From the IMG/VR virus record IMGVR_UViG_3300008954_000001: a DNA stretch of 64,000 nucleotides. One strand, written 5' to 3'. The translations under genes and the position numbers were made by a program. This document shows positions 3,112 to 30,041 of this stretch, in pieces. The notes below the pieces were generated by a model. That model did no database searches and had not been told where the DNA came from. It saw only the letters and a list, made by a program, of their open reading frames with translations. Every line of letters starts with the position of its first letter. Position 1 is the stretch's first letter. The stretch comes from a virus (taxonomy: Duplodnaviria; Caudoviricetes).

Positions 3112-6100
3112 CCTCATCCTCCACTCCGGGGGGGCGGGATCGACCAGCGTAAGGGCTTGCTTGTAGGTCAAGCACCTTCTTATCGAGCCGCCACTTACTT
3201 GCATCCCGTTTTGAGACTGACCCCCATTCTTCGGTCAGGTCCATTTCTTGAGAGGCTTTGATGATGTCATCAAAGATGTCGGAATCCATCTTCTGGTAGA
3301 GAGCACGAATCGTATCAAGGGTTACGTCTTCGTAACCTCGCTCACCCACATTACTTGCCGACCCCGAATAACAAGAGTCAATCGTGATCTCCTGTACCTT
3401 TTGCTCTTGCCCTTGTCGCCAAGCACGAGCGGTGCGCTGCTTCATCGCTTCGCTGTTCCAGTGGTTACGGTCAAGGTGAACAACGGTATCGAAAGTCTGA
3501 AGGTTGTGTCCGTGAGAGTATTCCTTCCCCAACATGGTTGCGGTCTTGATCTCAGGGTTCTTCTTAACGATTTCTTTGAGCACAAACTGTTGCCATTGGG
3601 CCGCTGGATAGTTCTTATTCAAACCCTCGGCTCGAACCAGCTTCGTTTTAGGTGGAAGGTTCGGGTACTTGCGATACTTGCGCTTGCGGAACGGTAGTTG
3701 AAAAATGGCTCGACCACCCGCTTCAGCTACCCACCGATCAGCTTGATCTGCAAACAACAGTTCCATATCACCACGCTCAAACGGCACGGTGTAGGAATCG
3801 ATGGGGGAACCCCCTTCGTATAGTTGAATCGAATCTTTGAGGGCCAAAACATGAAGCCCCCCAATCCGAGAGGACATTCGCATCACGGAGTCGATACAGA
3901 GCTTCGGGTCATCGCTAAAGATCAAGGCTCGTGAGCCAGTAAAACCCCCGCTCTCTTCCGTAGAGATGATCTTATCCGCAAGAGTTTGCTCGCAAGTGTC
4001 CAGTTTGGGGTTCGGCATCGTTTCAGCCAACCGCTCGATTTCTTCTGGCGACCCCAATTGGTCCAAGAGAGTTTGTCCAACCTTCTTGATCCCACGAGGA
4101 TATTCGCCCCAGTTTTTCCGAAACCGCTTTGAATACTTGTACTTCTCTGGCGGGTTTCCAGAAGCGATCTCCGACAAGTCTCGCATAGCGTCAGCGGGCC
4201 TGTTCGAGAGGGTGTTCAATAGATTGACCCAAGGCCGCAATCGTAGTCCGAAAATATCTTCGGCTTTCTTGTCTCGATAAGAGTCTTGTTTGCGCCGTTC
4301 CTTGAACTTGACCGCAGCCGCTTGAAGAACGGTAGTCATTTGAGCGGTGACTGCTCGGTAGGCGGTTTCGACTTCGGGAGCCATCTCCGCTACTCGTGTT
4401 TCCACTAAGGGATCAGGGAGGTCATATTCATCGACCTTGGTTTTATCAGCATAAAAAACATTACGCTTTACCCAAGTTTTCATATCTCGTGCTGAGTTTT
4501 CATCACGAGTTACGCCAACAATGCGGCCACCAACGATATTGCAGAAGCGGTTTTTGAACCGCTGCATGGTCTTTCGGTTCTCTCGTGGTTCAACATCCCG
4601 CCCAAATAGAGGGGTGTTGTTCGAGATGGCCGCCAACACATAGGCTTCCATGGGGTTCTTTTCCATAGGGGAAGCTGTCAGACAGACTTTACGGGGGTGC
4701 CACAGTTTGAGGGCTGCTTGGGATCGCTGTGTCTTAGGGTTCTTGAGTGCGTGAGCTTCATCGAAGTAAATCTGAACGTACTCTTCGGGGTTCCACGCTT
4801 TCGGGGGCTTCTTGCTCTTAGCAGCTTGCTTCCCCACGCCCCCATATTGTTGATCCCACTCTTCTTGCTTCTGTTTCCAGTAATCATGCTGCTTCTTCAA
4901 AGGAGCGGGAATCTTCCCCGAACGAGAGGAACCTGAAAAGTTGGAGTAGGGGAGACAGTCAACTCGGTCGATCAACCCCCCGCCTTTACCTTTGATAAAG
5001 GCTTCAATCTCTTTAGGCATGTTGCCTACCAGAGACTTTGGACACACATAGAGGAACCGCCCATTGGTCTTTACTTCACGACCATCTGGCCGGGTGTAGC
5101 TGGCATCTTCTTCGAGCCAACCATCACGGACAGCTTTAACCATGCCACCAATCGCCGTGAGAGTCTTTCCTACGCCTGTTTCCAGAGCGCAAACCCCTGC
5201 CCCACCATTGGCATCAATCCACGCCAGAGCTTCCCGCTGCTTGCCCAACAACTCGAACTCTTTAGGCTCCCCATCCTTTTTGTAGGATGGGATAAAGGTG
5301 AAGTCCTCTACGATTTCTCCATTTTCATCCCGAATAGCCGTACTCAAGTTCGCCGCCTTGTATGCGGTGGTGTCCTTGGTCGCTTCTTCGGCGTTCGCCA
5401 GATCCTTGTAATACTGTTTGATCTTCTTATTTGCGGCTTCGGATAAGGCCAACCCTTCGGTTTTCTTCATCACCGTGCCGTAATCTTTGGGATCAAAGTA
5501 CACGGAGATGGCACGAGACCCTTTTACTGGGAACCATTCCATACTCGGAATACATCGCCTTGCGGGGGAAAAGGACTTGGTGCCACCAGCGCAGCAGAGT
5601 TCTTTTAGGTCGTTTCGGATATCTTTAAGAGGACCATCTCCTGGAATGGTGATCATCATCTTTTGGGTTTTGACCTTCTTCCGCTTCCCCATCACCGTGC
5701 GTGTTTTCGTTACATCCGCAACGGTGACATACGGCTCCCTTTCAGCAGGGTCGATCCGTTCGGGAACAGGGTGCGAAGCCCCACTTCGAGGATTGTAGGT
5801 ATAAGCGGTGCCTTCAATCATACGCCCATTGGCGTTGATCATGTCATCAAGGAAAATCCCCTTGTAGCGACCCCCCGTAATCACCTTCATTTCGGTGTAG
5901 GTGACGTTACCTTCGCCGTCTGTCACGGGAACGCTGATCATTTTTGTGGGGTACAGGCGGGTGAGCTTGCCTCGTTTGGCCTTATCATCCGTCAGGGAAG
6001 AGTATTCGGTTTCTCCACCAAGCTCTTCAATGGCTTCATCGTCTACTTTGCGTAGCCGCTTGAGGGGGACATTGACCTTTGTGGGTAGCTTGGACAGCTT

Positions 6101-6898
6101 CTTTTGCTGTTCCTCGTAGGTCTTTCGCTTCTCGATGTATTCTGGGATCGTGAGCTTTTTCCCGTCTCGGTCATAAATCAGCTCTTCCCCAGTTTCCTCG
6201 TTAGTCGCAACTAATGGGATTCTTCCCATTAGTTTAATTCGACGAACGCTGTGACCATCGGCCCGCATAGCCTTTTCTGTGTTCAGGTCAATCTCTCGAA
6301 GGGTCTTCTTTTCTTCAAGCATCAACGCATAGGTTTCAGGATCTTCGTCTTTGATCCTTTCGAGTTCAGCGGTGCCTTTCGCAGCAGGCTTGAGGCGCAA
6401 CCACCATTCGGTTGGTGGCACTCCACCAATCCTCATGGACTTCATGTAAACACCCTTATCTCTGGCGACCTCAATTAACAAAGGCACGAGGATTCGATTG
6501 AGCCGACCCCATAGGATCGAGCTTTCGGGGCGGGCAACGACTTTACGAATACATTGAAGGACTTCTGTTCGCTGGTCTGCGAGCATGTTGACAATAGTTG
6601 GACTCAGCCCTCGCTTGTCCACGGGGGATGTAATGCGAGTCAGCCGTAAGGCTTCTTTGCGGTACAGGATGACAAGGTCTTCCTGTAAAGGCATCCCATG
6701 TCGGAATTCCCACAGCTTGCGGTAGATTTGGAAGAACTCTAAGCCCTTCACAGTGAAAGCCCTACGGAGCTTCACTTCAATGGCGGGCTGAATTAGCGTC
6801 CGACCAGCTTCAATCAGCTTGATCTGCGCCTTGCTTAATCCAAGCTCCTCCAAATTGACTTTAGCTGTCTTGGAGGGAAGGGCATTCCCAACTTCCAT
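3104..6898 (-). CDS. SNF2-family (SF2) helicase/ATPase with a long unknown N-terminal half
   Basis: Motif I ETGVGKT, motif II DEAH, motif III TASP, motif VI QRTARAWRQGQ. Confidence 0.85.
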   Translation of the reverse strand: MEVGNALPSKTAKVNLEELGLSKAQIKLIEAGRTLIQPAIEVKLRRAFTVKGLEFFQIYRKLWEFRHGMPLQEDLVILYRKEALRLTRITSPVDKRGLSPTIVNMLADQRTEVLQCIRKVVARPESSILWGRLNRILVPLLIEVARDKGVYMKSMRIGGVPPTEWWLRLKPAAKGTAELERIKDEDPETYALMLEEKKTLREIDLNTEKAMRADGHSVRRIKLMGRIPLVATNEETGEELIYDRDGKKLTIPEYIEKRKTYEEQQKKLSKLPTKVNVPLKRLRKVDDEAIEELGGETEYSSLTDDKAKRGKLTRLYPTKMISVPVTDGEGNVTYTEMKVITGGRYKGIFLDDMINANGRMIEGTAYTYNPRSGASHPVPERIDPAEREPYVTVADVTKTRTVMGKRKKVKTQKMMITIPGDGPLKDIRNDLKELCCAGGTKSFSPARRCIPSMEWFPVKGSRAISVYFDPKDYGTVMKKTEGLALSEAANKKIKQYYKDLANAEEATKDTTAYKAANLSTAIRDENGEIVEDFTFIPSYKKDGEPKEFELLGKQREALAWIDANGGAGVCALETGVGKTLTAIGGMVKAVRDGWLEEDASYTRPDGREVKTNGRFLYVCPKSLVGNMPKEIEAFIKGKGGGLIDRVDCLPYSNFSGSSRSGKIPAPLKKQHDYWKQKQEEWDQQYGGVGKQAAKSKKPPKAWNPEEYVQIYFDEAHALKNPKTQRSQAALKLWHPRKVCLTASPMEKNPMEAYVLAAISNNTPLFGRDVEPRENRKTMQRFKNRFCNIVGGRIVGVTRDENSARDMKTWVKRNVFYADKTKVDEYDLPDPLVETRVAEMAPEVETAYRAVTAQMTTVLQAAAVKFKERRKQDSYRDKKAEDIFGLRLRPWVNLLNTLSNRPADAMRDLSEIASGNPPEKYKYSKRFRKNWGEYPRGIKKVGQTLLDQLGSPEEIERLAETMPNPKLDTCEQTLADKIISTEESGGFTGSRALIFSDDPKLCIDSVMRMSSRIGGLHVLALKDSIQLYEGGSPIDSYTVPFERGDMELLFADQADRWVAEAGGRAIFQLPFRKRKYRKYPNLPPKTKLVRAEGLNKNYPAAQWQQFVLKEIVKKNPEIKTATMLGKEYSHGHNLQTFDTVVHLDRNHWNSEAMKQRTARAWRQGQEQKVQEITIDSCYSGSASNVGERGYEDVTLDTIRALYQKMDSDIFDDIIKASQEMDLTEEWGSVSKRDASKWRLDKKVLDLQASPYAGRSRPPGVEDEDE

Positions 6899-6899
6899 T

Positions 6900-9317
6900 T
6901 CAGTCTACCCAAATGATCTGTGCCCCGTCAGGCAAGTCCGTAACGCTGGTGTAAGTGACATACTCGTTGCCAACCTTCACGGCATGACCAGCTTCGTAAC
7001 CGTGCTGGCCCATATCGGGCTGTACCTTGTTGCTATCCTCATCATTGGGGAGAGTGCTGTGGCCTTCGGCCTTCTCTTTGAGTTCAGAGTCTTCAGCAGC
7101 CTGTTTAGGCGGCGTGGTGGTTCCGTTGAACTCGGTTGCCCCTGGATTGTAGCCAGAGTTGCCTTCGAGCTTAGGCTGCGCTTCGTTGCTCTCATCTTCA
7201 CCGGGAAGTTGTGAGCGGCCCATGCCTTCGCCTTCTTTGTCCTCGTCCTCGTCATCCTCCGCACCAAACATGACACGGCCTCGTTGAAGTTCGCCGTTAG
7301 CGATACGGGTAGTCAGACGGACACGGGAGGCTTTCTTCGGGTTCAAACCATCTTTGATGGCTTTCACGACTGGAGTTCCAAGCAGCCCCGAATCTTTTTC
7401 GGCTACGATGGCGGGATCACCGGATTCTTCATCCTCGGTATCATCGTCCTTGGCGGCGGCCTTCTTGCCTTCGTCTTCGTCGTCCTCGCCTTCCTTGCCT
7501 TCGCTCTTTTTCTTTTCGCAGTTTTCCTTCAAGGCGGGAGGCAGTTTTTCGCAACCAGCGGTCTTACCGTCCTCATCCTCATCTTCACCTTCTTTGTCGC
7601 CATCTTTCTTCTTGGCTTCGCAAGCCTCTTGCATGGCTTCATTAGGAAGGTTCTCACAACCAGCGGTCTTACCGTCTTCGTCGTCCTCGCCTTCCTTATC
7701 TCCATCCTTCTTTTTAGCTTCACAGGCTTCTTGCATCGCCTCATTGGGGAGGTTTTCGCATCCAGCGGCTTTAAGGATAGCCTCGGCTTGGGCGATCAGT
7801 TTGTTCGCCCACATTGATTTCAGGTGGGGGTTGTTGTTATCCGACAACCACCGCTCCACATCAGACCAAAGGGTCTCTGTGTCCTTGATGCGCTCCAAGG
7901 ATGCCCGAACATTACGGGGGAGGTCGTCGTAGCTCATGGCGTTGCCACCACTCGCCAGATACTTCTCAAGCACCTTCTCTTGCCGCTTCATAAGGCGAGC
8001 AGCCTTGATGTGCTTCGAGGGATCTTTGGCATTGGCCGCAAGCTCTTCGGGCATCTTGCTCAAAGGAACCTTCTTACCCTTTTCGTGCTTGGCCTCTTTC
8101 TCATCGGCCTCTTTCTCATCCTCTTTATCGGAGGCGGTCACAAGAGAAGCGGCTTCGGGGTAGAAACGGAGAAGAATACGGGCAAACCGACACCGGCCAC
8201 GCTTCGAGTGATCACGGAGGAACGAAGTGATCTTCTCATACTTGGCTGTGCGGCGTGTGTGCAGGTCGTAAGCAACTGATCCCGCTTCTTGGGAAATGTC
8301 TAAACAAGCCTGAAGTGCCAACTTCGCCGTCTTCACTCGGTAGCCATACATTCCGTGACCAGCAGCGATCTTGGTGGATGCCTTCTTGGTCGAAGTCAAA
8401 CTAACTTTCCACTTCGAGGTGCCTCCGCCGAGCGACTCCGCTTTGGTCTTGACACCATCCTTCTCGATTTGCTTGGCGAACGCCTTGGCGTCTTTCTCTG
8501 CTTGGATACCGTTCGGCTCACTATAAAACGTGACTGAGCCATTCCCGTTAGCGGCGGCAATAATGAGGCTGACATCACTCTTTGGGCGAGACTTCTTGAT
8601 GGCTGCATCAATCGTAGCCCCAAGCTCATCGTTCTTTACCATTCGCTTGGTGGATGCCACCTTGGGTCCGATGTCCTCCATCGCAGCACAAAGGATGCGA
8701 GCAGACAGGGAGTTGGAACGCTTGGCATGGAGGTCAAGGAACGCAAACGTGGCCCTGTCCTTCGCATAAATCGTTCGAGCGATCTTATTAGCGACCTTTT
8801 GAACCTTACGAACCGAAGCCAAAACATCCCTTTGGGTCTGTTTCGTGTAGCCGTACAGTCCCCCAGAAGGGCGTTTCTTTACTGTTTTCAGGGCGGTAGC
8901 CATCTTGGAGAGGGACAACTCGTCCTCTTTCTCCAAAGACTTCAATACGTCTTCTAAGTTCATCATTTGTCGTTCCTCATGGTAATCAACTTCCCCATAA
9001 TCGGGCTGAGTCCTTAAAGGTGTGACCTGTAGAGGCTCACCTTCAAGTGTCTTATAGAAGGAGGATTGAAGTTCGGCGTTCGCAAGAGCCTCAAAATCAG
9101 CCCCACCATCCCGATCTTCATCCCATTTCTTCTTGTGTTTCGGTCTACGGCGACCCTTCGCCACATCCCTCACACGGCTGTCCTCTTTCATGGGGCCAGC
9201 GTTCGGTGTATTTTCAATGTGATCTCGCATGATCTCATTACGGGTCTTGGGCGTGTCTCGCCTGATCTTCATCTTGTCCTTTTGAGACAAGGGCTTCTTT
9301 TTCCTACGTCTACCCAT
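6900..9317 (-). CDS. Charged repeat-containing protein, putative internal head or polyprotein-like
   Basis: Likely start ATG 9317 (MGRRRKKK) overlapping the upstream stop; duplicated GLYGY/GMYGY domain, tandem AGCExLP repeats, many KxA sites. Confidence 0.65.
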   Translation of the reverse strand: MGRRRKKKPLSQKDKMKIRRDTPKTRNEIMRDHIENTPNAGPMKEDSRVRDVAKGRRRPKHKKKWDEDRDGGADFEALANAELQSSFYKTLEGEPLQVTPLRTQPDYGEVDYHEERQMMNLEDVLKSLEKEDELSLSKMATALKTVKKRPSGGLYGYTKQTQRDVLASVRKVQKVANKIARTIYAKDRATFAFLDLHAKRSNSLSARILCAAMEDIGPKVASTKRMVKNDELGATIDAAIKKSRPKSDVSLIIAAANGNGSVTFYSEPNGIQAEKDAKAFAKQIEKDGVKTKAESLGGGTSKWKVSLTSTKKASTKIAAGHGMYGYRVKTAKLALQACLDISQEAGSVAYDLHTRRTAKYEKITSFLRDHSKRGRCRFARILLRFYPEAASLVTASDKEDEKEADEKEAKHEKGKKVPLSKMPEELAANAKDPSKHIKAARLMKRQEKVLEKYLASGGNAMSYDDLPRNVRASLERIKDTETLWSDVERWLSDNNNPHLKSMWANKLIAQAEAILKAAGCENLPNEAMQEACEAKKKDGDKEGEDDEDGKTAGCENLPNEAMQEACEAKKKDGDKEGEDEDEDGKTAGCEKLPPALKENCEKKKSEGKEGEDDEDEGKKAAAKDDDTEDEESGDPAIVAEKDSGLLGTPVVKAIKDGLNPKKASRVRLTTRIANGELQRGRVMFGAEDDEDEDKEGEGMGRSQLPGEDESNEAQPKLEGNSGYNPGATEFNGTTTPPKQAAEDSELKEKAEGHSTLPNDEDSNKVQPDMGQHGYEAGHAVKVGNEYVTYTSVTDLPDGAQIIWVD
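7465..7770 (-). repeat. About 3 tandem in-frame repeats of ~102-105 bp (AGCENLPNEAMQEACEAKKKDGDKEGEDDEDGKT)
   Basis: CAACCAGCGGTCTTACCGTC recurs near 7552 and 7657, with a variant near 7760; copies differ at synonymous sites. Confidence 0.85.
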
Positions 9318-21683: not shown

Positions 21684-22444
21684 AGCAGGGAAGCCCACTG
21701 ACGCTTCCACTTTTTCAAGCGGTGGTAGTGGTTAGGGAACTCATTACAACGTCCCTCAGGTTTAGGTGCTCGAATACCTGTTACCCACGCCACTCGCCAA
21801 ATGCGAGATACATGGTGTTTCGATATGCGACACTTCTTGCGAACCTTGTTCCGTTGCTTGTCGATATGGGTCAACCAAGACCTTGCGTTCACAAGAGGCT
21901 CCCGACGATTGATTCCGTAACCACCCTTTTCTACGGGGGCGGTCCACCACGGCCACAGTTGTAGAAGACCGATAGCCTTGGGCTTCCCTCGCTTCGAGAA
22001 CTTATGATCCCCTTCAGCGTTTGGGTTATACCCCGACTCGGTACAAGCGGAGGCTAACAACATGCCTCGCATATCTTTAGGGATGTTGAACTCACGCTCC
22101 ATAAGGATGAGCTTGGTCAACAGAACGGGGTCTCGGTACTTCTTTTTGGCCCGCTTACAAGTGAGGGCCACTTCGAGAATCCGTTGCTCTAACTCCGTCA
22201 AAACCGGAGGAGACAAGGGAACTTCTTCTTTAGTCTGATGCTGTGCGGGGATAAAGATATGGGCGGGCTGAAATTCAAGGTTGGTATCAACAAGAGGTTC
22301 AGGAGCCTCTTTTTCTACCGTAGCCACTTTTGGCGGGGGACCATTCGCTTGTTCATGACACCCCATAAATAAGATGAGTGGTATTAGATGAACTTGTCTT
22401 TTCAAAATTTGATTCTCCTCATACAAAAAAGGACCGTTCCCCAT
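21680..22444 (-). CDS. Lytic transglycosylase (SLT-like), possible lipoprotein
   Basis: LLASACTESGYNPNA (catalytic Glu), AIGLLQL; LILFMGC lipobox-like. Confidence 0.7.
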   Translation of the reverse strand: MGNGPFLYEENQILKRQVHLIPLILFMGCHEQANGPPPKVATVEKEAPEPLVDTNLEFQPAHIFIPAQHQTKEEVPLSPPVLTELEQRILEVALTCKRAKKKYRDPVLLTKLILMEREFNIPKDMRGMLLASACTESGYNPNAEGDHKFSKRGKPKAIGLLQLWPWWTAPVEKGGYGINRREPLVNARSWLTHIDKQRNKVRKKCRISKHHVSRIWRVAWVTGIRAPKPEGRCNEFPNHYHRLKKWKRQWASLL

Positions 22445-22480
22445 GAACGGCCCCCATAAGAAAGCAGTCCTGATTAAGAG

Positions 22481-23180: not shown

Positions 23181-23872
23181 TTACGTTGCAGGTTTGCACC
23201 CTACGACCACAGGTTCCCATGCTGGCTTTAGAGCAGTCCCCACACCACGATAAGGTAACGCTGTTTCACAAAGTTCCGTATCTTGCTCATCCGCTTCGAT
23301 TTCTGAACTGAACATGCGGCCCTTCCGATAGTCTACTTGGCCCGTAGGGGCGTAAGATTCCCCCATACGAGCCATGCGAAGGTTCTTGGGGGCCGTACCC
23401 CCTGTCAACACCAGTGCGTTGATTGCACGGGCCACGTTGTGCGATTTTGGAAAGCCGCTTCCATAGAGCCACCCTTCAAGGCGGATATCCGTGAAGCCCG
23501 CTTCGGACATGGCGGCAGCCAGACGATGATACGTTCGAGTACCAGAGAACGCCTTGATGATCCCAGATGGGCGTAGGACTCGGTAAGACTCCTGCAACCA
23601 AAGAAGGTGCCACTCTTGCTGTCGCTGAAGAACATCTTCGGACTTCCCGTAAGAAGCGGTGCCTCCGTATCGAACTTTAGATCGACCGTATGGGTTATCT
23701 ATGTCGGAGAACTTTCCGTCCCCCGGTTGGTCAGGGACGCATTTGTCCCAATCTTTCCCCATAAACTCCAAACCTAACCGTAGGGAGGATCACAAATGAT
23801 GCTCCCTACGCTTCCCTCCTTCATTTCGGACATTCGAGCGATACAATCGCCGTGTAAAAGACGAAGGATCAT
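23181..23872 (-). CDS. N4/N6 DNA MTase catalytic half, interrupted after DPPYG (5-nt gap containing TAG)
   Basis: ATG 23872 overlaps the upstream TGA; 32 codons to DPPYG, TAG at 23776-23774, then LEFMGK...WLYGSGFPKS...GTALKPAWEP in the -1 frame. Confidence 0.8.
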
Positions 23873-24726
23873 TTAACCCCTACACAAACTGGTTCCCAAC
23901 TTGGCTTGAGGGCCGTACCCCACCCGTCCCATGTTTCGGACTCTGGTGTAGCGGGAGCAGTAACAGGGATTTCTGATGGTCCTTCAGAAGTGAAGGCCAC
24001 CCCTGGAACGGCTTTGCGGTATCCGACGATCTCACGCTCGGCTTCAGCGAAGAACTCGTCCAACTCTCCATCCATTTCAGTTTCGCTCTCGCAACCCAAC
24101 ACCCGCTTCATGGTTTCCCACTTCTCAGGTGAGGGAAGGACGTTGAACCAAGGGTCGGGCTGCTTGCCGTCCTCTGGAACAGACAAGTAGTTGCAAGCCC
24201 GAAAGCCACACTCCTTATCGATCTGAGAGCGGGTCTTGCCCGAAGCGTCGAACAACTTACGAAGTTCCTCTTTCAAAACCGTGACGGACGAATTCATACG
24301 ACCGTGCTGCTTATCGATGGCCTTGCCAATGTTCATAGACTTTGGAAACCCAGAACCGTAAGTCCACGCCTCTACCCGAATGTCCTTCAAGCCAGCGTGT
24401 TCCATAGCCTCGGCCATTCGGTGAAACGTCCTTGTCCCTCCAAAGGCTTTGACGACTCCACCGGGTTTGAGGACACGGAAAACCTGACCCCAAAACTCTT
24501 GGCTAAAGGCGATCCCAGTTCCGTCCCATTCTTTACCCATGAAGCCTTTGGATTTGCTTGGCCCACTCCGTCCATAGGGAGTTTCCAAGTCCCCCGGTTG
24601 AGGGCTTCCATTACGAGAGTTCCCAACAAGGTCGTAAGGAGGGTCACACACGAAGGCGGCGACCGAGTTGTCTTCCATTTCACTGAGGCGAATAATGCAA
24701 TCGCCATGCTTCAAGTTTAAGTTCAT
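23869..24726 (-). CDS. N4/N6 DNA MTase catalytic half (intact) with an HTH-like insert
   Basis: Start ATG 24726 (ATGA overlap); HGDC, DPPY, GFMGKEWD, WTYGSGFPKS, GTALKPSWEP; no FxGxG. Confidence 0.85.
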   Translation of the reverse strand: MNLNLKHGDCIIRLSEMEDNSVAAFVCDPPYDLVGNSRNGSPQPGDLETPYGRSGPSKSKGFMGKEWDGTGIAFSQEFWGQVFRVLKPGGVVKAFGGTRTFHRMAEAMEHAGLKDIRVEAWTYGSGFPKSMNIGKAIDKQHGRMNSSVTVLKEELRKLFDASGKTRSQIDKECGFRACNYLSVPEDGKQPDPWFNVLPSPEKWETMKRVLGCESETEMDGELDEFFAEAEREIVGYRKAVPGVAFTSEGPSEIPVTAPATPESETWDGWGTALKPSWEPVCVGVK

Positions 24727-25327
24727 AGCTTTACTCCTACGATTATGGGTTCCCAAGCTGGCTTCAAGGCTGTCCCCCAACCTTCCCAAGGCTTCGCTTC
24801 GGTGGTTGTTACAGACCATTTTCCACCGGGCTTGTTTCGATATTGTCCCGCCTTCGTGCCTTGCCACTCTTCACGGTCGAACTCATGGCGGATCATTTCG
24901 GTAGTGGGATCTTCTTGGCCGCTCATGGCACGGGCATCGGCAATCTGTTTGGGGGACGACCCTCCGAACAGGACCGTGGCTTCAATGTTCTTTCCAATGT
25001 TATAGGACTTTGGAAAGCCAGAACCGTACATCCATGCCTCTATGCGTATATGTGCATATCCAGCTTGCTCCATAGCGGCTGCGAGCCTGTGGTAAGTGCG
25101 AGTACCGCTAAAGGCTTTGATATTTCCGCCAGAACGAAGAACTCGGTGGGCCTCTTGTAGCCAGCGCACATGCCAAAGTTGTTGTGAATCTAACTTGTCC
25201 CAACCTTTACCCATAAATTCGAGGCCATTCAGCCGTAGGGAGGATCACAAATAATCCCCCCTACGCAGCCCTCCTTCATCTCGGACATGCGCTGTACGCA
25301 ATCCCCAAGCCTAATGGTTAGATTCAT
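24723..25327 (-). CDS. N4/N6 DNA MTase catalytic half, interrupted after DPPYG (8-nt gap containing TGA)
   Basis: ATG 25327 overlaps the upstream TGA; 32 codons to DPPYG, TGA at 25231-25229, then GLEFMGK...GTALKPAWEP in the -1 frame. Confidence 0.8.
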
Positions 25328-25533
25328 CCTGAATACCCGTCCTTGGCCCAACCGCCACCTTTCAATGAAAAGGAGGTCTTGGAAATGAGCTTCTTTAACT
25401 TGCCTTTGCCCTTGTCCTTCTTCTTACCTTTGCAAAGGTCTTTAGAACAGGTCTTCAAAGGGTCTTCAGACATACGCTGCATCACTTCAAAGCAATGCCC
25501 GCACCTTTCACACTCGTACTCATAGATCGCCAT
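25324..25533 (-). CDS. FmdB-family zinc-ribbon protein
   Basis: MAIYEYECERCGH...TC...LISKTSFSLKGGGW. Confidence 0.9.
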   Translation of the reverse strand: MAIYEYECERCGHCFEVMQRMSEDPLKTCSKDLCKGKKKDKGKGKLKKLISKTSFSLKGGGWAKDGYSG

Positions 25534-26690
25534 TAACTGCCCATACCGAACAGATCGGACAATCCAACTGCTTCCTCTTCTTTGGTTTCCGTTGGGGCTT
25601 CCGAGTCAATCTTTGCCATACGGCCACGCCATTCAGAGGAATCCCAATACCGAACACGGGCATCGGCAATCCGAATGTAGTCTTCCTCTTTTTCGATGCC
25701 GATAAAGTCATGTCCTGTATGAAGGGCGGCGATCCCAGTTGACCCTGACCCCATAAAAGGATCAACCACAGGGCCGTTGCCCTTAGGGACAGTGTTGAGT
25801 AGGGCTTCCATGATGGCGTAGGGCTTTACGGTCGGGTGGTCATTACCAAGCCGCTTTCCATCCTTACGAAGTTTCGCACAACCCGCTTCTCGTTCCGAAC
25901 GAGAAGCCTTGGGGACATACCAAAAGCCTTCGGCATCAGTAACGAACAAGATGCTGTCCCGAATCTCGAACCCACCATCCTCTAAACGGCAAGCACCAAC
26001 ATGACCTGTGGGCATATCGTCGGGAGCGACCAAGAGAATGTGTCCTCCCGGTTTGAGGACTCGATCCATCTCTTTCGTTTGATCTTCGGTAGGTGTCCCT
26101 TCCGCAATCAAACCGTGAATGGATTGATCCTCCACCTCGGACAAGTCGTAAGCATTTACGTCCTTCATATAAAGGACACCCCCATCCCCCGTGATGTGGG
26201 ACGGGTCAATCAAGTCCGTCAAATACGACAGCAATTCGCTTGGGATAGCGTCATTATTTTCCATGTTATCCACCTCTTTGAAATATCTTGATGCCCCACC
26301 AGTATCTTCATACCCTCGAACAGTCGTGTCCCTGACATCATTTGAGTTCCATTCCACCGAAGATCCTTCAGTAGAATAAATAGGTTCCCCGGTAGGTTGC
26401 CGTAAACCCGTCGATGAAATCCCACTTTGTTCGTCTAAGGCTCCCGAACTGGTTTCGGTAAGGACCACATTTGCGGGCCACCGTCCTTCAGGATGTTGGC
26501 CTTGGGCTTCAAGGTCGTCCTTCATTCCGAAGTTGATTGACGAAGCCTCTCGGTTGTTTGACCCAATGGACAAGGTATCGGTTGTACCGATACGCACATT
26601 GTCGATGTTCAGCCCACCACACCCATGTTTCAAGGTGTTGGCGGCGACCGTCCCTATGAGGGGCTTTCTGGCTACTGTGATTCCTTTCAA
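25533..26690 (-). CDS. N4/N6 MTase-like SAM-binding protein lacking DPPY
   Basis: Likely TTG start 26690 with GGAGGTG RBS; ARKPL, GRWPANV, HPTVKP, DPFMGSGSTG; IAEGTP sits where DPPY is expected. Confidence 0.8.
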   Translation of the reverse strand: MKGITVARKPLIGTVAANTLKHGCGGLNIDNVRIGTTDTLSIGSNNREASSINFGMKDDLEAQGQHPEGRWPANVVLTETSSGALDEQSGISSTGLRQPTGEPIYSTEGSSVEWNSNDVRDTTVRGYEDTGGASRYFKEVDNMENNDAIPSELLSYLTDLIDPSHITGDGGVLYMKDVNAYDLSEVEDQSIHGLIAEGTPTEDQTKEMDRVLKPGGHILLVAPDDMPTGHVGACRLEDGGFEIRDSILFVTDAEGFWYVPKASRSEREAGCAKLRKDGKRLGNDHPTVKPYAIMEALLNTVPKGNGPVVDPFMGSGSTGIAALHTGHDFIGIEKEEDYIRIADARVRYWDSSEWRGRMAKIDSEAPTETKEEEAVGLSDLFGMGS

Positions 26691-27280
26691 GGAGACACCT
26701 CCGCAATTTGGTTGCCCCAAGAGTGCCAACCGGGGCGGTCTCTCCGTGCGAACACTTCTAAGTAAGGGCCATCTGAAACCGTCTCCACCAATTCATAGAA
26801 CGCATCGGGTTTCCGTGAATGGGCGGTTCGGTCAGCATGGACCACAGTCGGGGGCCTTCTATCTGTGGAAGGGACCATTGCTTTCCCTTTGACCCCAAAC
26901 AAAAGAAGTTCATGCTGACCCCGCATATATTGGCCTAAACCTTTTCGTTGTTTGACCCACACGGCGTTGGTTACATAACGGAACCCAAGTTCTTCCATGA
27001 GCCACAAGCCGTCCGTTAGGTAGTTGTTTGTTGCCCATAACCACAGGTGGCAATCGTCGGCGGGTCGCCAAAGATCCCCTGATTGGATTACCGCTGGCAT
27101 GTCCTTGGTCTTTACCAAGGGATAGTGTCGATCCGCACCTCGCTTAATGGTTCCCCCTCCCACTTCGGTCCATGGAGGGTCCATCATAATTGCTCGGTAT
27201 CCCGCTTGAGGTACTTCCCCAAGCGACATGATGTGCGGGGGCTTTTGAACCCCCATGGCGAACAGATCAGACAGTTCCAT
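26687..27280 (-). CDS. MT-A70-family adenine methyltransferase
   Basis: IMMDPPW, LWLWAT, GQHELLLFG, HSRKPD, LEVFAR. Confidence 0.9.
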   Translation of the reverse strand: MELSDLFAMGVQKPPHIMSLGEVPQAGYRAIMMDPPWTEVGGGTIKRGADRHYPLVKTKDMPAVIQSGDLWRPADDCHLWLWATNNYLTDGLWLMEELGFRYVTNAVWVKQRKGLGQYMRGQHELLLFGVKGKAMVPSTDRRPPTVVHADRTAHSRKPDAFYELVETVSDGPYLEVFARRDRPGWHSWGNQIAEVSP

Positions 27281-28448
27281 CGCTGTTTCTCCGCACGATT
27301 TCTTTAGCCCTCTCAGCCATTTCAGGCATGTTCAGGCAAGGGTGGGCGCAATCAATCTTTCGTTTCGTAAGGTTGTAGTGGTTGATGAAGCCGTTGAACA
27401 CCGCAGCAACACTTTCACCGTGAAGCCCTGTTTCAGGGGTGCCATCATCTTTGGTCGGGACATCAAGAGGAATCCCCAAACCTTGATGGATAGCTGCCCA
27501 CAGTGCAGCAAGAGCTTCCAACTGTACGGGATAGAAGCCCATGAAAGGCTTCATTGAACGACCATGGCAAGTACCATCCGTAATAATAGGTCGAGGGTCT
27601 AACCCCTTGTCCGTGTAGAACTTCTGATACTTTTCGTAATAGGGATTGCAGATTTCGACACCAATCCCCGTGTGGTTCCACAATCGACCCCCGGCTTGCC
27701 ATGCGGCATGTTGAGTGTCGAGAAGTTGGTAAATAGTCCCATCGTAGTCGATGCCAAAATGGATGCTGATCCCACGCTTGGCAATCACAGCCGCCATAGA
27801 CTTAGTGGTTTTACAGACATCCCAGTGGTTCACGAAATGATTGGGCGCACGGTCTGGCTTCCCCGCATACGAGGAATAGGTTCCCGACTCACACTTCAAG
27901 CCCCCAACATCTGACCAGAGAACCACACGGTCCCAGTCAATCTCAATGAAGTTGCCGTTGTGTACGATGTGCTGCTGTCGTTTGATAATGACAGGCTCGT
28001 GGGCATCAATATCCTCTTCTCGCTCCGTCCAAATGCGACGGAAAGTTGAAGGGCCACACAAGCCGTCTGCGGTCAAATCTCGATCCGTCTGCCACTTCGC
28101 AATCGCTTCAGTGAGATCGGTATCAAAAGCCGCAAGGCCCTCCCCAAACCAATCGGGGGTCCAGCCGAGCTTTTCAGCCGAGCTTTCGTTGTAGAACTCT
28201 TTGCCTGAAGTGCCGTTGCTTTCTTGTTCTTCGGCTTCCTTTTCAGTAGCGATTTTACGCTCTTGAATAAGAACCTTAAAGGTTCCAGGGCCGCACAGCC
28301 CATCTGCGGTGAGGTTGTGGGAGGATTGCCAAGCCGTAATCGCTTCGGTCAGATGTTCATCGAACTCTTCAAACTTTCCAAACCATTCAGGTTTCCAACC
28401 TAATTTTTGGGCCGAGTTCTCGTTGTAGAATTCTTTATCGATTGCCAT
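27267..28448 (-). CDS. N-acetylmuramoyl-L-alanine amidase with two peptidoglycan-binding repeats (endolysin-like)
   Basis: Two AI..WQ....LTADGLCGP repeats; VNHWD, SIHFGID.DGTIYQ, GIGVEI, HY...KIDC. Confidence 0.85.
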   Translation of the reverse strand: MAIDKEFYNENSAQKLGWKPEWFGKFEEFDEHLTEAITAWQSSHNLTADGLCGPGTFKVLIQERKIATEKEAEEQESNGTSGKEFYNESSAEKLGWTPDWFGEGLAAFDTDLTEAIAKWQTDRDLTADGLCGPSTFRRIWTEREEDIDAHEPVIIKRQQHIVHNGNFIEIDWDRVVLWSDVGGLKCESGTYSSYAGKPDRAPNHFVNHWDVCKTTKSMAAVIAKRGISIHFGIDYDGTIYQLLDTQHAAWQAGGRLWNHTGIGVEICNPYYEKYQKFYTDKGLDPRPIITDGTCHGRSMKPFMGFYPVQLEALAALWAAIHQGLGIPLDVPTKDDGTPETGLHGESVAAVFNGFINHYNLTKRKIDCAHPCLNMPEMAERAKEIVRRNSDGTV

Positions 28449-28496: not shown

Positions 28497-28528
28497 GTAT
28501 TACGGCAAGGGTCGGAATTTAGCCCCCC
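28497..28528 (-). promoter_or_regulatory. Bipartite promoter motif upstream of the amidase-MTase operon
   Basis: Minus strand reads GGGGGGCT AAATTCCGACCCTTG CCGTAATAC. Confidence 0.6.
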
Positions 28529-28877: not shown

Positions 28878-30041
28878 ATGAAGCGAGCCGTTCGTTTCCT
28901 TTTAATTTCATTACTTTTCGTAGCTTGCGAGAACGACTACCAGCTTTATGACGCTCGGTGTGGAGCACCCTGTTACACGGGGGATGTAGATACCAGAGAG
29001 GTCGGAGAGTGCAAGGACGGCATTGGCATCTGCGAGAACCGAGTCTTTGTAGCTTGCGAAGGCGAACTCCTTCCTGACATTGAATACTGCGACTCTTTAG
29101 ACAATGACTGCAACGGCATTGTTGACGACGAATCCCAAGATACAGGGATGTATGAGATTTGTGGTTCGGGCATTGGTGAATGTGATTTCGGAGCGATGGC
29201 TTGCGTAGACGGCGGCCTCATGTGTACCGATTACATTGATCCCGTGGAAGAAATCTGTGATGGCTTAGACAACGATTGCGACGGCGTTGTGGATAACCTC
29301 GATATTATCGAGGGTTGTTACGACGGTGAAGAGGAGGAGTTGTGGCACGGCATCTGTCACATGGGCTTCTATACCTGTGACCCCGTTTCGTTAGAAAAAG
29401 TTTGCACCAACCAGCAACTTCCCGAAGAGGAAGTATGCGACAACGTCGATAACGATTGTGACGGCTTCATTGATGAAGATTTGAATGAAGACGAAGAAGT
29501 GGACATCGTGTTTATGATCGACCTTTCGGGATCAATGAACAGCTACTTCGCCAGCGTTGCTTCGGCGGCTCAGATGTTCTCCACAGCCTTTTCTGGAAAC
29601 CCCGATTTCCGATTCGCTTTGGTTGGTATCCCGTACCCTTCAGACCGTGAGCCAGGGATTATCCTCGACTTCACAGACGCTTCAACCTTCTATTCGGCAC
29701 TGACAACCCTCTCTACATTAGGAGTCGGTTCGGAACCCTCTTGGGATGGCCCGTACTTGGCCTGTGAGGGTACTTTAGGGCTTTCGTGGAACGCTGGCAC
29801 CCGTAAGTATGTTGTGCTCTTTACAGACGAACGTGGACAGTCCTACGACGGTATTGATGAAAGCGATGTAGCCGACTCTTGTTACAACAATGATGTGACC
29901 TTCTACGGATTCATCAACGCTGGCTTTAGCTCCTACTTCGATGACATCTCTTCTATGACGGGCGGGGATCTATATTACTTGTCCACACCGACACAGATGG
30001 AAGACGACCTTTCAGAAATCTTCGATGACGAGTGTTGGTAG
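28878..30041 (+). CDS. Lipoprotein with Cys/Asp-rich CDGxDNDCDG repeats and a C-terminal vWA domain
   Basis: LLFVAC lipobox; CDSLDNDCNG, CDGLDNDCDG, CDNVDNDCDG; MIDLSGSM MIDAS motif. Confidence 0.85.
   Translation: MKRAVRFLLISLLFVACENDYQLYDARCGAPCYTGDVDTREVGECKDGIGICENRVFVACEGELLPDIEYCDSLDNDCNGIVDDESQDTGMYEICGSGIGECDFGAMACVDGGLMCTDYIDPVEEICDGLDNDCDGVVDNLDIIEGCYDGEEEELWHGICHMGFYTCDPVSLEKVCTNQQLPEEEVCDNVDNDCDGFIDEDLNEDEEVDIVFMIDLSGSMNSYFASVASAAQMFSTAFSGNPDFRFALVGIPYPSDREPGIILDFTDASTFYSALTTLSTLGVGSEPSWDGPYLACEGTLGLSWNAGTRKYVVLFTDERGQSYDGIDESDVADSCYNNDVTFYGFINAGFSSYFDDISSMTGGDLYYLSTPTQMEDDLSEIFDDECW

Follow-up and report, generated by a model that had tools for sequence, protein, structure and literature searches.

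Here we describe an operon, lying wholly on the minus strand of a 64,000-nucleotide (nt) stretch of DNA (the window; IMG/VR record IMGVR_UViG_3300008954_000001) from a marine phage of ~323 kb, in which the conserved motifs of a beta-class DNA amino-methyltransferase are distributed over separate genes. We consider it likely that the operon specifies one such enzyme assembled from separate polypeptides, with alternative N-terminal halves (N-halves A, B, and C) joining a single C-terminal half (the C-half, or hub), and that N-halves A and C are produced through a ribosomal hop over a stop codon. The hub gene was located on a 323-kb contig, and the identical product of 385 amino acids (aa) was predicted by gene callers in public assemblies (P0001). 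Apart from one helix-turn-helix-like insert, all features of a first-pass annotation, made from the letters of the window alone, were found again at the same coordinates. The parts of the proposed enzyme, including the open reading frames (ORFs) of the two interrupted N-halves, are as follows.

25533..26690, minus strand: C-half (hub), 385 aa, TTG start overlapping the stop of the MT-A70 methyltransferase gene (TTGA)
26265..26690, minus strand: middle ('R') module of the hub, residues 1-142, RKPL..NID..GRWPAN..ASRYFK; 39% identity to residues 249-396 of P0150, a single-chain relative
25917..26264, minus strand: pseudo-catalytic domain of the hub, residues 143-258, starting at a conserved Met (ATG 26264); EGTP (26102-26091) replaces DPPY; PTGH.G.C and GFEIRD invariant
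25536..25916, minus strand: C-sub part of the hub, residues 259-385, with PKASRSERE, motif X (HPTVKP), motif I (DPFMGSGSTG, 25763-25734), motifs II-III, and the tail LSDLFGMGS
24723..25327, minus strand: N-half A; ORF1 25327-25232 (32 aa, ends DPPYG), stop TGA 25231-25229, ORF2 in the -1 frame 25223-24726 (166 aa, LEFMGK...VGVKL)
23869..24726, minus strand: N-half B, 285 aa, uninterrupted
23181..23872, minus strand: N-half C; ORF1 23872-23777 (32 aa, ends DPPYG), stop TAG 23776-23774, ORF2 in the -1 frame 23771-23184 (196 aa)

Distribution of motifs among the hub and the N-halves

The three N-halves, of which A and C comprise 198 and 228 aa when read through the hop, each carry DPPY, FMGKxWD, and WxYGSGFPKS and end after GTALKP(A/S)WEP with no FxGxG, exactly as the first-pass annotation had described these paralogs. 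In content they correspond to motifs IV-VIII, including DPPY, and are devoid of strands 1-3 and of every S-adenosylmethionine (SAM) motif. DPPY was invariant in 31 homologs of the B type. DPFxGSG was absent from A, B, and C; motif IV occurred only in the N-halves and motif I (DPFMGSGSTG) only in the C-half, the neighbouring MT-A70 protein carrying DPPW. The C-half opens with ITVARKPL..NID..GRWPANV..ASRYF and closes with HPTVKP..DPFMGSGSTG, and here too the earlier description proved accurate. Motif I placed C-terminal to motif IV, as in the beta class, was not found in any one polypeptide of this set and, because motif I is absent from the N-halves, can be satisfied in trans only. When N-half B is read before the C-half, the order of motifs (IV-VIII, variable region, X, I-III) is that of a single-chain member, the extra pseudo-domain aside. 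Against the Pfam profile N6_N4_Mtase (PF01555, 221 positions), the N-halves matched positions 3-111 with 19.1-20.2 bits, under the 26.7-bit cut-off, and the C-half matched positions 144-219 with 78.3 bits, so that together the pieces cover the profile.

In agreement with this division, the pieces were collinear with P0150, a single-chain metagenomic protein of 486 aa. Its residues 1-254 aligned with N-half B (48% identity, E 7e-94), residues 249-396 with C-half residues 4-137, and residues 392-473 with C-half residues 253-346, and the strand (I/V)xx(A/G)xK(P) was present on both sides of the cut. These alignments support the reading of the N-halves and the C-half as complementary pieces of one beta-class enzyme. 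The closest family is formed by single-chain phage beta-class N6/N4 enzymes (PF01555, phrog_67, phrog_3008), such as P0150 and the 'DNA methylase' gp61 of mycobacteriophage Nerujay, whose identity to the window pieces was 39-48%. Shared with them is the order DPPY, FMGKxWD, GSGFPKS, GTALKPxWEP, ARKPL, NID, GRWPAN, SRYF, PKAS..ER, HPTVKP, DPFxGSG. Unlike the single-chain enzymes, the chain in the window is cut after WEP..(A/G)xK. Its N-terminal piece comes in three versions, its C-terminal piece has acquired a conserved pseudo-catalytic domain located between SRYF and PKAS, and the middle segment is also found as free genes. An uncultured 484-kb phage (L001, LR756508.1) encodes four tandem full-length paralogs of this methylase family at 3167-8494, one with an intein-like insert of ~300 aa and another in which DPPY is missing and motif I is eroded; the array may represent an unsplit, precursor-like state.

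The large inserts of A, B, and C lie after GSGFPKS, where beta-class enzymes hold the variable or target recognition domain (TRD) region, and insert types were kept as orthologs across phages. In N-half B, a variable insert of ~130 aa at this point is accompanied by a 27-aa insert between DPPY and FMGK. The first-pass annotation had noted that the inserts differ and had called one of them helix-turn-helix (HTH)-like; the former held, while Pfam detected no HTH in the insert of N-half B, HTH_3 being present in three of its homologs. Free N-halves of 170-330 aa were numerous in the protein collection, and most of those listed had no Pfam match.

Residues 207-250 of the C-half were homologous to the motif V-VIII region of N-halves (BLASTP E 1e-7 against P0150). 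Their alignment with the N-half part of P0150 identifies the segment from SRYF to PKAS as a genuine homolog of N-halves, with EGTP instead of the former DPPY. What had been annotated as a degenerate N-half copy is therefore homologous to an N-half, but 'degenerate' was a misnomer: many residues of the pseudo-domain were invariant across 23 homologs, including G198, P200, PTGH.G.C, and GFEIRD. Judged by this conservation, the EGTP domain is a conserved scaffold and not a decaying remnant. By alignment, the middle module is the second part of the variable/TRD region of single-chain enzymes. Relatives of known structure in the PDB (M.BceJIV, CcrM, and DpnA) matched the C-half in the C-sub part only. 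The monomer model of the C-half was of middling quality, with a predicted local distance difference test (pLDDT) value of 65, and a fold search returned partial matches at Z 6-8; the solved enzymes listed (M.RsrI, CcrM, M.BceJIV, and EcoP15I Mod) aligned with residues 257-366 only and never with the pseudo-domain, and the model suggests that the strand-1 edge of the hub is free. Modelled alone, the middle module reached a pLDDT of 50, too low for a usable model. On two contigs (G004 and G002) the hub lies within an open frame of 631-761 aa and its match is split, perhaps by an intein.

Core-only proteins of 239-271 aa, consisting of the pseudo-domain and motifs X and I-III, were free-standing in some phages and start at the equivalent of ATG 26264. 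In the window this codon is an in-frame Met at the junction of module and core, conserved in close relatives, with AGGTG 7 nt upstream. A shorter hub isoform starting there is conjecture on our part; AGGTG also encodes conserved Q/E-V residues, so its conservation decides nothing about an internal start.

Related hubs of 381-396 aa, with 59-62% identity, were encoded on marine contigs reaching 303 kb. The gene order amidase, MT-A70 (or a version of it without DPPW), hub, zinc ribbon, one to five N-halves, and Acb5-like gene was seen in L002-L006, L110-L112, and L122-L124. Hub and N-half genes were adjacent in L002-L006, L110, L113, and L122, and the contig L112 ends 61 codons into its first N-half. 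When IMG/VR contigs were collected through the N-half recoding pattern only, a hub lay beside the N-half in all four sizeable ones. A search of IMG/VR with the single C-half returned no close relative, and a profile search returned mostly distant single-chain enzymes. Selection was estimated on both sides of the interruption in the N-halves: nonsynonymous divergence (dN) over the shared downstream columns was 0.14-0.29 with synonymous divergence (dS) saturated, and dN/dS over the 31 upstream codons was 0.12-0.76. The catalytic and SAM motifs were invariant among homologs. These data support a split that is conserved in many related phages under purifying selection, and the synteny search recommended by the first-pass annotation thus revealed an arrangement neither unique to this genome nor decaying. 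The parts co-occur and are inherited together, consistent with an obligate split.

Free middle modules were found in the operons of L002, L006, and L113. In L002 and L006 they are genes of 148-200 aa that had no Pfam match and read RKPL..NID..GRWPAN..SRFFK; in L113, a different 331-kb phage, the genes run from a middle module through a core-only hub and one N-half to three further middle modules and the zinc ribbon. The protein collection held 579 such modules, which belong to no Pfam family and are called 'hypothetical' where named. One of them (P0323) lies in a tandem array between a primase and a DNA polymerase A gene, with six copies on an ENA contig and one copy truncated or cut off on JGI contigs. 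The JGI contig Ga0105019_1000018 carries both the array and an N-half B identical to that of the window, from which it follows that the window phage has three N-halves, a single hub, and, besides the middle module fused to that hub, about six free ones. Given the free modules in relatives and in the window phage, this is a three-part system and not a two-part one. Of the two-part operon originally proposed, the complementarity of the halves, collinear with P0150, was retained and the number of parts was revised.

Probable recoding sites in N-halves A and C

In both A and C a stop codon directly follows DPPYG and the remainder of the protein is in the -1 frame. The two sites are located as follows.

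25224..25265, minus strand: recoding site A; take-off GGC 25234-25232, gap TGAAT 25231-25227, landing GGC 25226-25224; proposed hop of 8 nt
23772..23810, minus strand: recoding site C; take-off GGT 23779-23777, gap TA 23776-23775, landing GGT 23774-23772; proposed hop of 5 nt

Site A reads TAC GGC TGA AT GGC CTC GAA TTT ATG and site C reads TAC GGT TA GGT TTG GAG TTT ATG, the first G of the landing GGT at site C being the last base of TAG. Paralogs without the interruption have DPPYG-LEFMGK at this point; a hop from Gly to Gly would thus restore the canonical protein exactly. A hairpin precedes the stop at both sites. At site A (25265-25234) it has a 14-bp stem whose 3' arm consists of the DPPY codons and the first G of the take-off codon, with a free energy (dG) of -29.5 for a 60-nt stretch; at site C (23810-23779) the dG was -22.7. 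Relatives carry the site as GGC TGA (A/C/T)T GGC/GGT, and the L-E-F codons after the landing site showed synonymous variation only. It follows that this frame is translated upstream of the FMGK Met, which argues against reinitiation there.

To see how widely the pattern occurs, we scanned metagenomes with a query that fixed only the codons of DPPYG and the single base after them and was thus blind to the sequence after the stop. The scan yielded 121 matches, of which 50 had TGG in frame, and 26 distinct sites had a recognizable methylase continuation. GGN stood directly before the point where reading resumes in all 26, across gaps of 2, 3, 4, 5, 6, 7, or 11 nt and all three frames. A hairpin of ~14 bp was present at 23 of the 27 recoded sites of the LEFMGK type compared with 5 of 41 in-frame sites, and the hairpin of L097 showed compensatory changes in both arms. 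At sites A and C no indel was seen in contigs of other marine samples, and with the natural variant C>U at 23810 the hairpin position remains paired, as U-G. Recoding of A and C, which the first-pass annotation had anticipated for two of the halves, is therefore strongly supported by the matched Gly codons, the hairpin, and the concordance of the metagenome sites.

Ribosome bypassing is established in T4 gene 60, and 'stop-hops' have been recorded in synthetic E. coli constructs (PMC5009743, PMC5462505, bioRxiv 10.1101/2024.12.09.627546); a 2016 recoding review lists no utilized natural short hop. Like T4 gene 60, the sites described here have a Gly take-off codon followed immediately by a stop, a matched downstream landing codon, and mRNA structure at or 5' of the take-off. 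They differ in that the gap is 2-11 nt as opposed to 50 nt, no nascent-peptide signal is known beyond the shared DPPYG, and the sites fall at the catalytic motif of many methylase genes.

Further sites of this kind were encountered outside split operons. Single-chain phage methylases of the DPPYG-TTACKWD type, on IMG/VR contigs (L100, L101/L107, L102, and L105) and in metagenomes (L140, L183, L197, L231, L238, L242, and L247), have a Gly-stop-gap-Gly arrangement with gaps of 2-7 nt; in-frame cases occur among them (GGT TGA GGC). Two IMG/VR contigs carry unusual recoded N-halves. On L099 (37 kb), an intein-like insert of ~300 aa (CLSDDTEILTEHGW...) lies between GGTRMFHR..EAW and GNSGFPKS. On L096 (113 kb), the N-half is cut to 32 + 28 aa (60 aa), reading DPPYG and, past the interruption, LEFMGKKWDGWGTALKPSWEPVVVGRKP; the two termini and the hop site survive, with the entire middle deleted.

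Predicted assembly and alternative explanations

The complex of the hub with N-half B, a modelling experiment suggested by the first-pass annotation, was predicted in three runs alongside three controls. It scored 0.89 in the three runs and the best control 0.00, a level that, in the calibration of the tool, 58 of 80 solved complexes but also 2 of 110 mismatched pairs attained; these counts are only a rough guide. Contacts agreed to at least 83% between runs and the pLDDT of the partner was at least 71. Class I methyltransferases share the sheet order 3-2-1-4-5-7-6, in which the junction of strand 1 and strand 4 joins the SAM pocket to the catalytic loop. In the model, hub residues 308-310 (strand 1, before PFMGSG) contact N-half residues 24-26 (strand 4, ending in DPPY), hub residues 329-333 contact N-half residues 4-7, and W74 of GRWPAN contacts L273 of ALKP. 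The pseudo-domain (hub residues 226-261) is placed against N-half residues 97-106 and 262-281. The model would thus rebuild the canonical sheet in trans, which is a likeness to the intact fold and not proof of affinity. A, B, and C were identical at 41 of 74 predicted interface positions versus 28 of 106 aligned positions elsewhere, and their large inserts lie outside the predicted interface. Such a shared predicted docking surface fits interchangeable subunits.

In the mechanism that we propose, the operon product would be a beta-class DNA amino-methyltransferase, probably specific for N6 of adenine, built from separate chains; the activity itself, like the efficiency of the hop, is something we infer. 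The N-half would supply motifs IV-VIII, the DPPY loop, and the variable region, and the C-half the middle module, the pseudo-catalytic scaffold, and the SAM-binding motifs X and I-III. The DPPY strand of the N-half would pair with the FMGSG strand of the C-half to give the sheet 3-2-1-4-5-7-6, with SAM pocket and catalytic loop meeting at the interface, and the far edge of the N-half would lean on the pseudo-domain and the middle module. Because the N-halves have the docking surface in common and vary elsewhere, they may act as alternative catalytic subunits for one hub, and the approximately six free middle modules are probably alternative DNA-reading parts. Several enzyme forms, probably with several targets, would be obtained from few genes, most plausibly for protection from host restriction. 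A ribosome carrying peptidyl-tRNA-Gly at DPPYG, just before the stop, would hop 8 nt (A) or 5 nt (C) to the next Gly codon; A and C would be made only upon this hop, which the mRNA hairpin re-forming behind the ribosome may aid. In its boldest form, which we regard as possible but doubtful, the scheme describes a combinatorial enzyme of one hub, three catalytic halves, and about seven middle modules (up to ~20 forms), with two halves gated by hops of 5 and 8 nt that would be the first natural utilized short-range bypass sites, the same device operating in unrelated single-chain phage methylases.

Several observations weigh against this assembly and its recoding. The complex score may stem from solved, intact beta-class folds that the model has learned; the halves of split genes tend to pass this kind of complex test, and it was run with our own alignments, which makes the calibration approximate. 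The conserved interface positions are also motifs of the catalytic fold, so that their conservation alone is no proof of docking. Different specificities would be read from the variable inserts only. The hub already carries an N-half-like domain and a middle module within its own chain, which makes access of the free modules hard to account for. As for the hop, L108, L151, and L216 read GGT-T-AGC, which offers no Gly-to-Gly hop, 6 of the ~27 take-off and landing pairs need wobble-mismatched re-pairing, and sites of the TTACKWD type mostly have no hairpin.

The N-halves might assemble with the hub while their copies serve dosage, timing, or regulation and not different targets, specificity residing mainly in the middle modules; B, for example, would be constitutive and the two other forms throttled by inefficient hopping. 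We judge this unlikely, although L113 has one N-half but four free middle modules, the sole N-half of L110 is recoded, and at least one recoded N-half was present in every related genome examined, which suggests a regulatory use of the hop. Were the copies equivalent in target, the large inserts would not be expected to differ exactly at the variable/TRD region, and the persistence of insert types as orthologs indicates selection on them. An explanation in which the C-half is self-contained, either as an enzyme with an unusual motif IV or as a SAM-binding pseudo-enzyme, and the DPPY halves act alone, for instance as DNA-binding or restriction decoys, seems to us highly unlikely. It draws on the many invariant residues of the hub's own N-half-like domain, on the existence of the core-only proteins, and on the partial resemblance of the monomer model to a small Rossmann domain, at Z ~6 only. 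It would leave a protein without strands 1-3 and SAM motifs in which DPPY is nevertheless invariant, the listed solved beta-class enzymes align with hub residues 257-366 only (in a model of middling confidence), and every sizeable contig examined has N-half genes together with the hub gene, in translational coupling.

That the genes are decaying tandem methylase pseudogenes, with the interruptions after DPPYG being ordinary frameshift mutations, is scarcely credible. The tandem full-length paralogs of LR756508, one with eroded motifs, and the 60-aa N-half of L096 are what such decay might look like, but it is already contradicted by the same cut points recurring at 50-65% protein identity across many contigs, by strong purifying selection both upstream and downstream of the interruption, with invariant motifs, and by an interruption always at the same codon, with Gly at the point of resumption in every recognized case and a covarying hairpin; with synonymous sites saturated, the relatives are not one recent clone. 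A further possibility leaves the assembly intact and concerns only how A and C are read: a -1 frameshift, or termination followed by reinitiation at the FMGK Met, giving a 32-aa DPPY peptide and a separate body. Both sites in the window need a net change of -1, the system tolerates splitting, and stop and restart signals lie close together, but we think this quite unlikely too. No slippery heptamer is present, and slipping back by one base would place GGC or GGT on CGG, where re-pairing is impossible; the frame changes required at related sites are 0, +1, and -1, all with flanking Gly codons. The gap of L105 (TAATTAA) has stops in the 0 and +1 frames, which makes a simple frameshift impossible there and leaves bypass only. 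Reinitiation is at odds with the purely synonymous variation of L-E-F between landing and ATG, and the hop, in contrast to either process, gives the exact DPPYG-LEFMGK spacing.

Four other candidates were considered and rejected. DNA rearrangement or read-through fusing an N-half to the C-half does not suit a hub that comes first on the same strand, and a deletion between repeats would remove the hub. Protein trans-splicing was dismissed as no intein motifs were found at the cut, sequencing error as the same sequence was present in several samples, and stop-codon reassignment as the frame would still be wrong.

Counterparts of individual features are found in other methyltransferases. M.AquI and M.EcoHK31I are natural C5 methyltransferases of two polypeptides (PMC3404938 and references in it). 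As in these, conserved motifs are divided between separately translated polypeptides; M.AquI and M.EcoHK31I, however, are C5-cytosine enzymes with one fixed pair of subunits that must associate, whereas the system described here is of the beta class, has several copies of two of its three part types, and is predicted from genes. Type I systems combine HsdM with an exchangeable specificity subunit, HsdS (PMC3510504), and resemble the proposed enzyme in a constant catalytic/SAM core with separately encoded, swappable DNA-recognition subunits and in translationally coupled genes. Unlike Type I systems, the parts in the window have no sequence or fold relation to HsdS and no restriction subunit, and the Type I catalytic fold is unsplit. 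In the heterodimeric beta-class relatives METTL3-METTL14 and ciliate MTA1-MTA9, an active subunit bearing DPPW/DPPY is paired with a partner of eroded motif IV, a 'division of labour' (PMC7544214). Similarly, the EGTP domain of the hub is predicted to touch the N-half through equivalent loops; each partner in those pairs is a complete fold, whereas here the eroded domain is fused to the SAM strands missing from the active half. Our literature search, limited in full-text coverage, found no description of a split beta-class methylase with exchangeable parts or of hops in methylase genes.

If the assembly is as modelled, a Rossmann-type sheet would be completed across a subunit interface, with both the catalytic half and the DNA-reading module exchangeable, and many restriction specificities could be covered with little phage DNA. 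It would also provide a function for hundreds of unannotated small proteins of huge phages (free middle modules and free N-halves) and a natural template for split, programmable adenine methyltransferases. Short hops over a stop, hitherto known mainly from synthetic constructs, would be used in nature and recur at one protein motif.

Neighbouring genes of the transcription unit

The remaining features of the unit, listed from its 5' end, flank the methyltransferase genes.

28501..28528, minus strand: candidate phage promoter motif, GGGGGGCT-N15-CCGTA, one mismatch, just 5' of the amidase gene
27267..28448, minus strand: N-acetylmuramoyl-L-alanine amidase with peptidoglycan-binding domains, first gene of the unit; Amidase_2 57.5 bits, PG_binding_1 47 bits
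26687..27280, minus strand: MT-A70 family methyltransferase, 197 aa, DPPW intact; PF05063
25324..25533, minus strand: Zn_ribbon_8 (FmdB-type) protein, 69 aa
22749..23081, minus strand: Acb5-like downstream gene, 110 aa; orthologs marked PF26761 (Acb5) in precomputed hits; phrog_7499, function unknown
minus strand: 66-aa ORF after the Acb5-like gene, end of the unit
22429..22455, minus strand: terminator-like hairpin, 11 pairs and a T run, from a consensus scan only

The motif GGGGGGCT-N15-CGGTA occurred 11 times in the window versus 0.05 expected by chance (at 1093, 11347, 17168, 28528, 43788, 44353, 44426, 44575, 44616, 44921, and 48585) and is probably a phage-specific promoter. The hairpin at 22455-22429 is likely the end of the transcription unit. 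The amidase gene overlaps the MT-A70 start by 14 nt and was syntenic in relatives. From MT-A70 to N-half C the junctions overlap throughout (TTGA, TAATG, and three of ATGA), in keeping with the claim of the first-pass annotation that an MT-A70 methyltransferase and an FmdB zinc ribbon are translationally coupled with the halves. Both assignments passed the profile cut-offs (72.1 bits against 23.9 for MT-A70, in which MMDPPW is present, and 45 bits against 34.4 for the zinc ribbon). At all loci inspected among the relatives (L002-L006, L110-L114, L122, and L123), the zinc-ribbon gene stood beside the hub. For the gene at 23081-22749, the local Pfam copy gave no match, Acb5 included, and the Acb5 name comes from the precomputed hits of its orthologs alone.

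Divergent from the amidase gene, the plus strand encodes a Cys-rich protein of 387 aa (28878-30041) with a signal-like N-terminus, which adjoins the amidase in all relatives and whose orthologs had faint matches to Cu-binding_MopE. The C-half tail LSDLFGMGS (25562-25536, minus strand) resembles the start of the MT-A70 protein, MELSDLFAMG (27280-27251, minus strand). The tail was conserved in nearly all of the 23 C-half homologs, 18 of them with L(S/G)(D/S)LFG, and among the long ORFs of the window these two proteins alone have a motif of the LSDLF type at a terminus. We speculate that it may be a shared docking peptide, perhaps for a clamp or another part of the replisome. In two MT-A70 orthologs (L110 7483-8004 and L112 7168-7701) DPPW is lost (APAW and SPQW, respectively) while length and the MELSDLF start are kept; these proteins may be catalytically dead and retained for another role.

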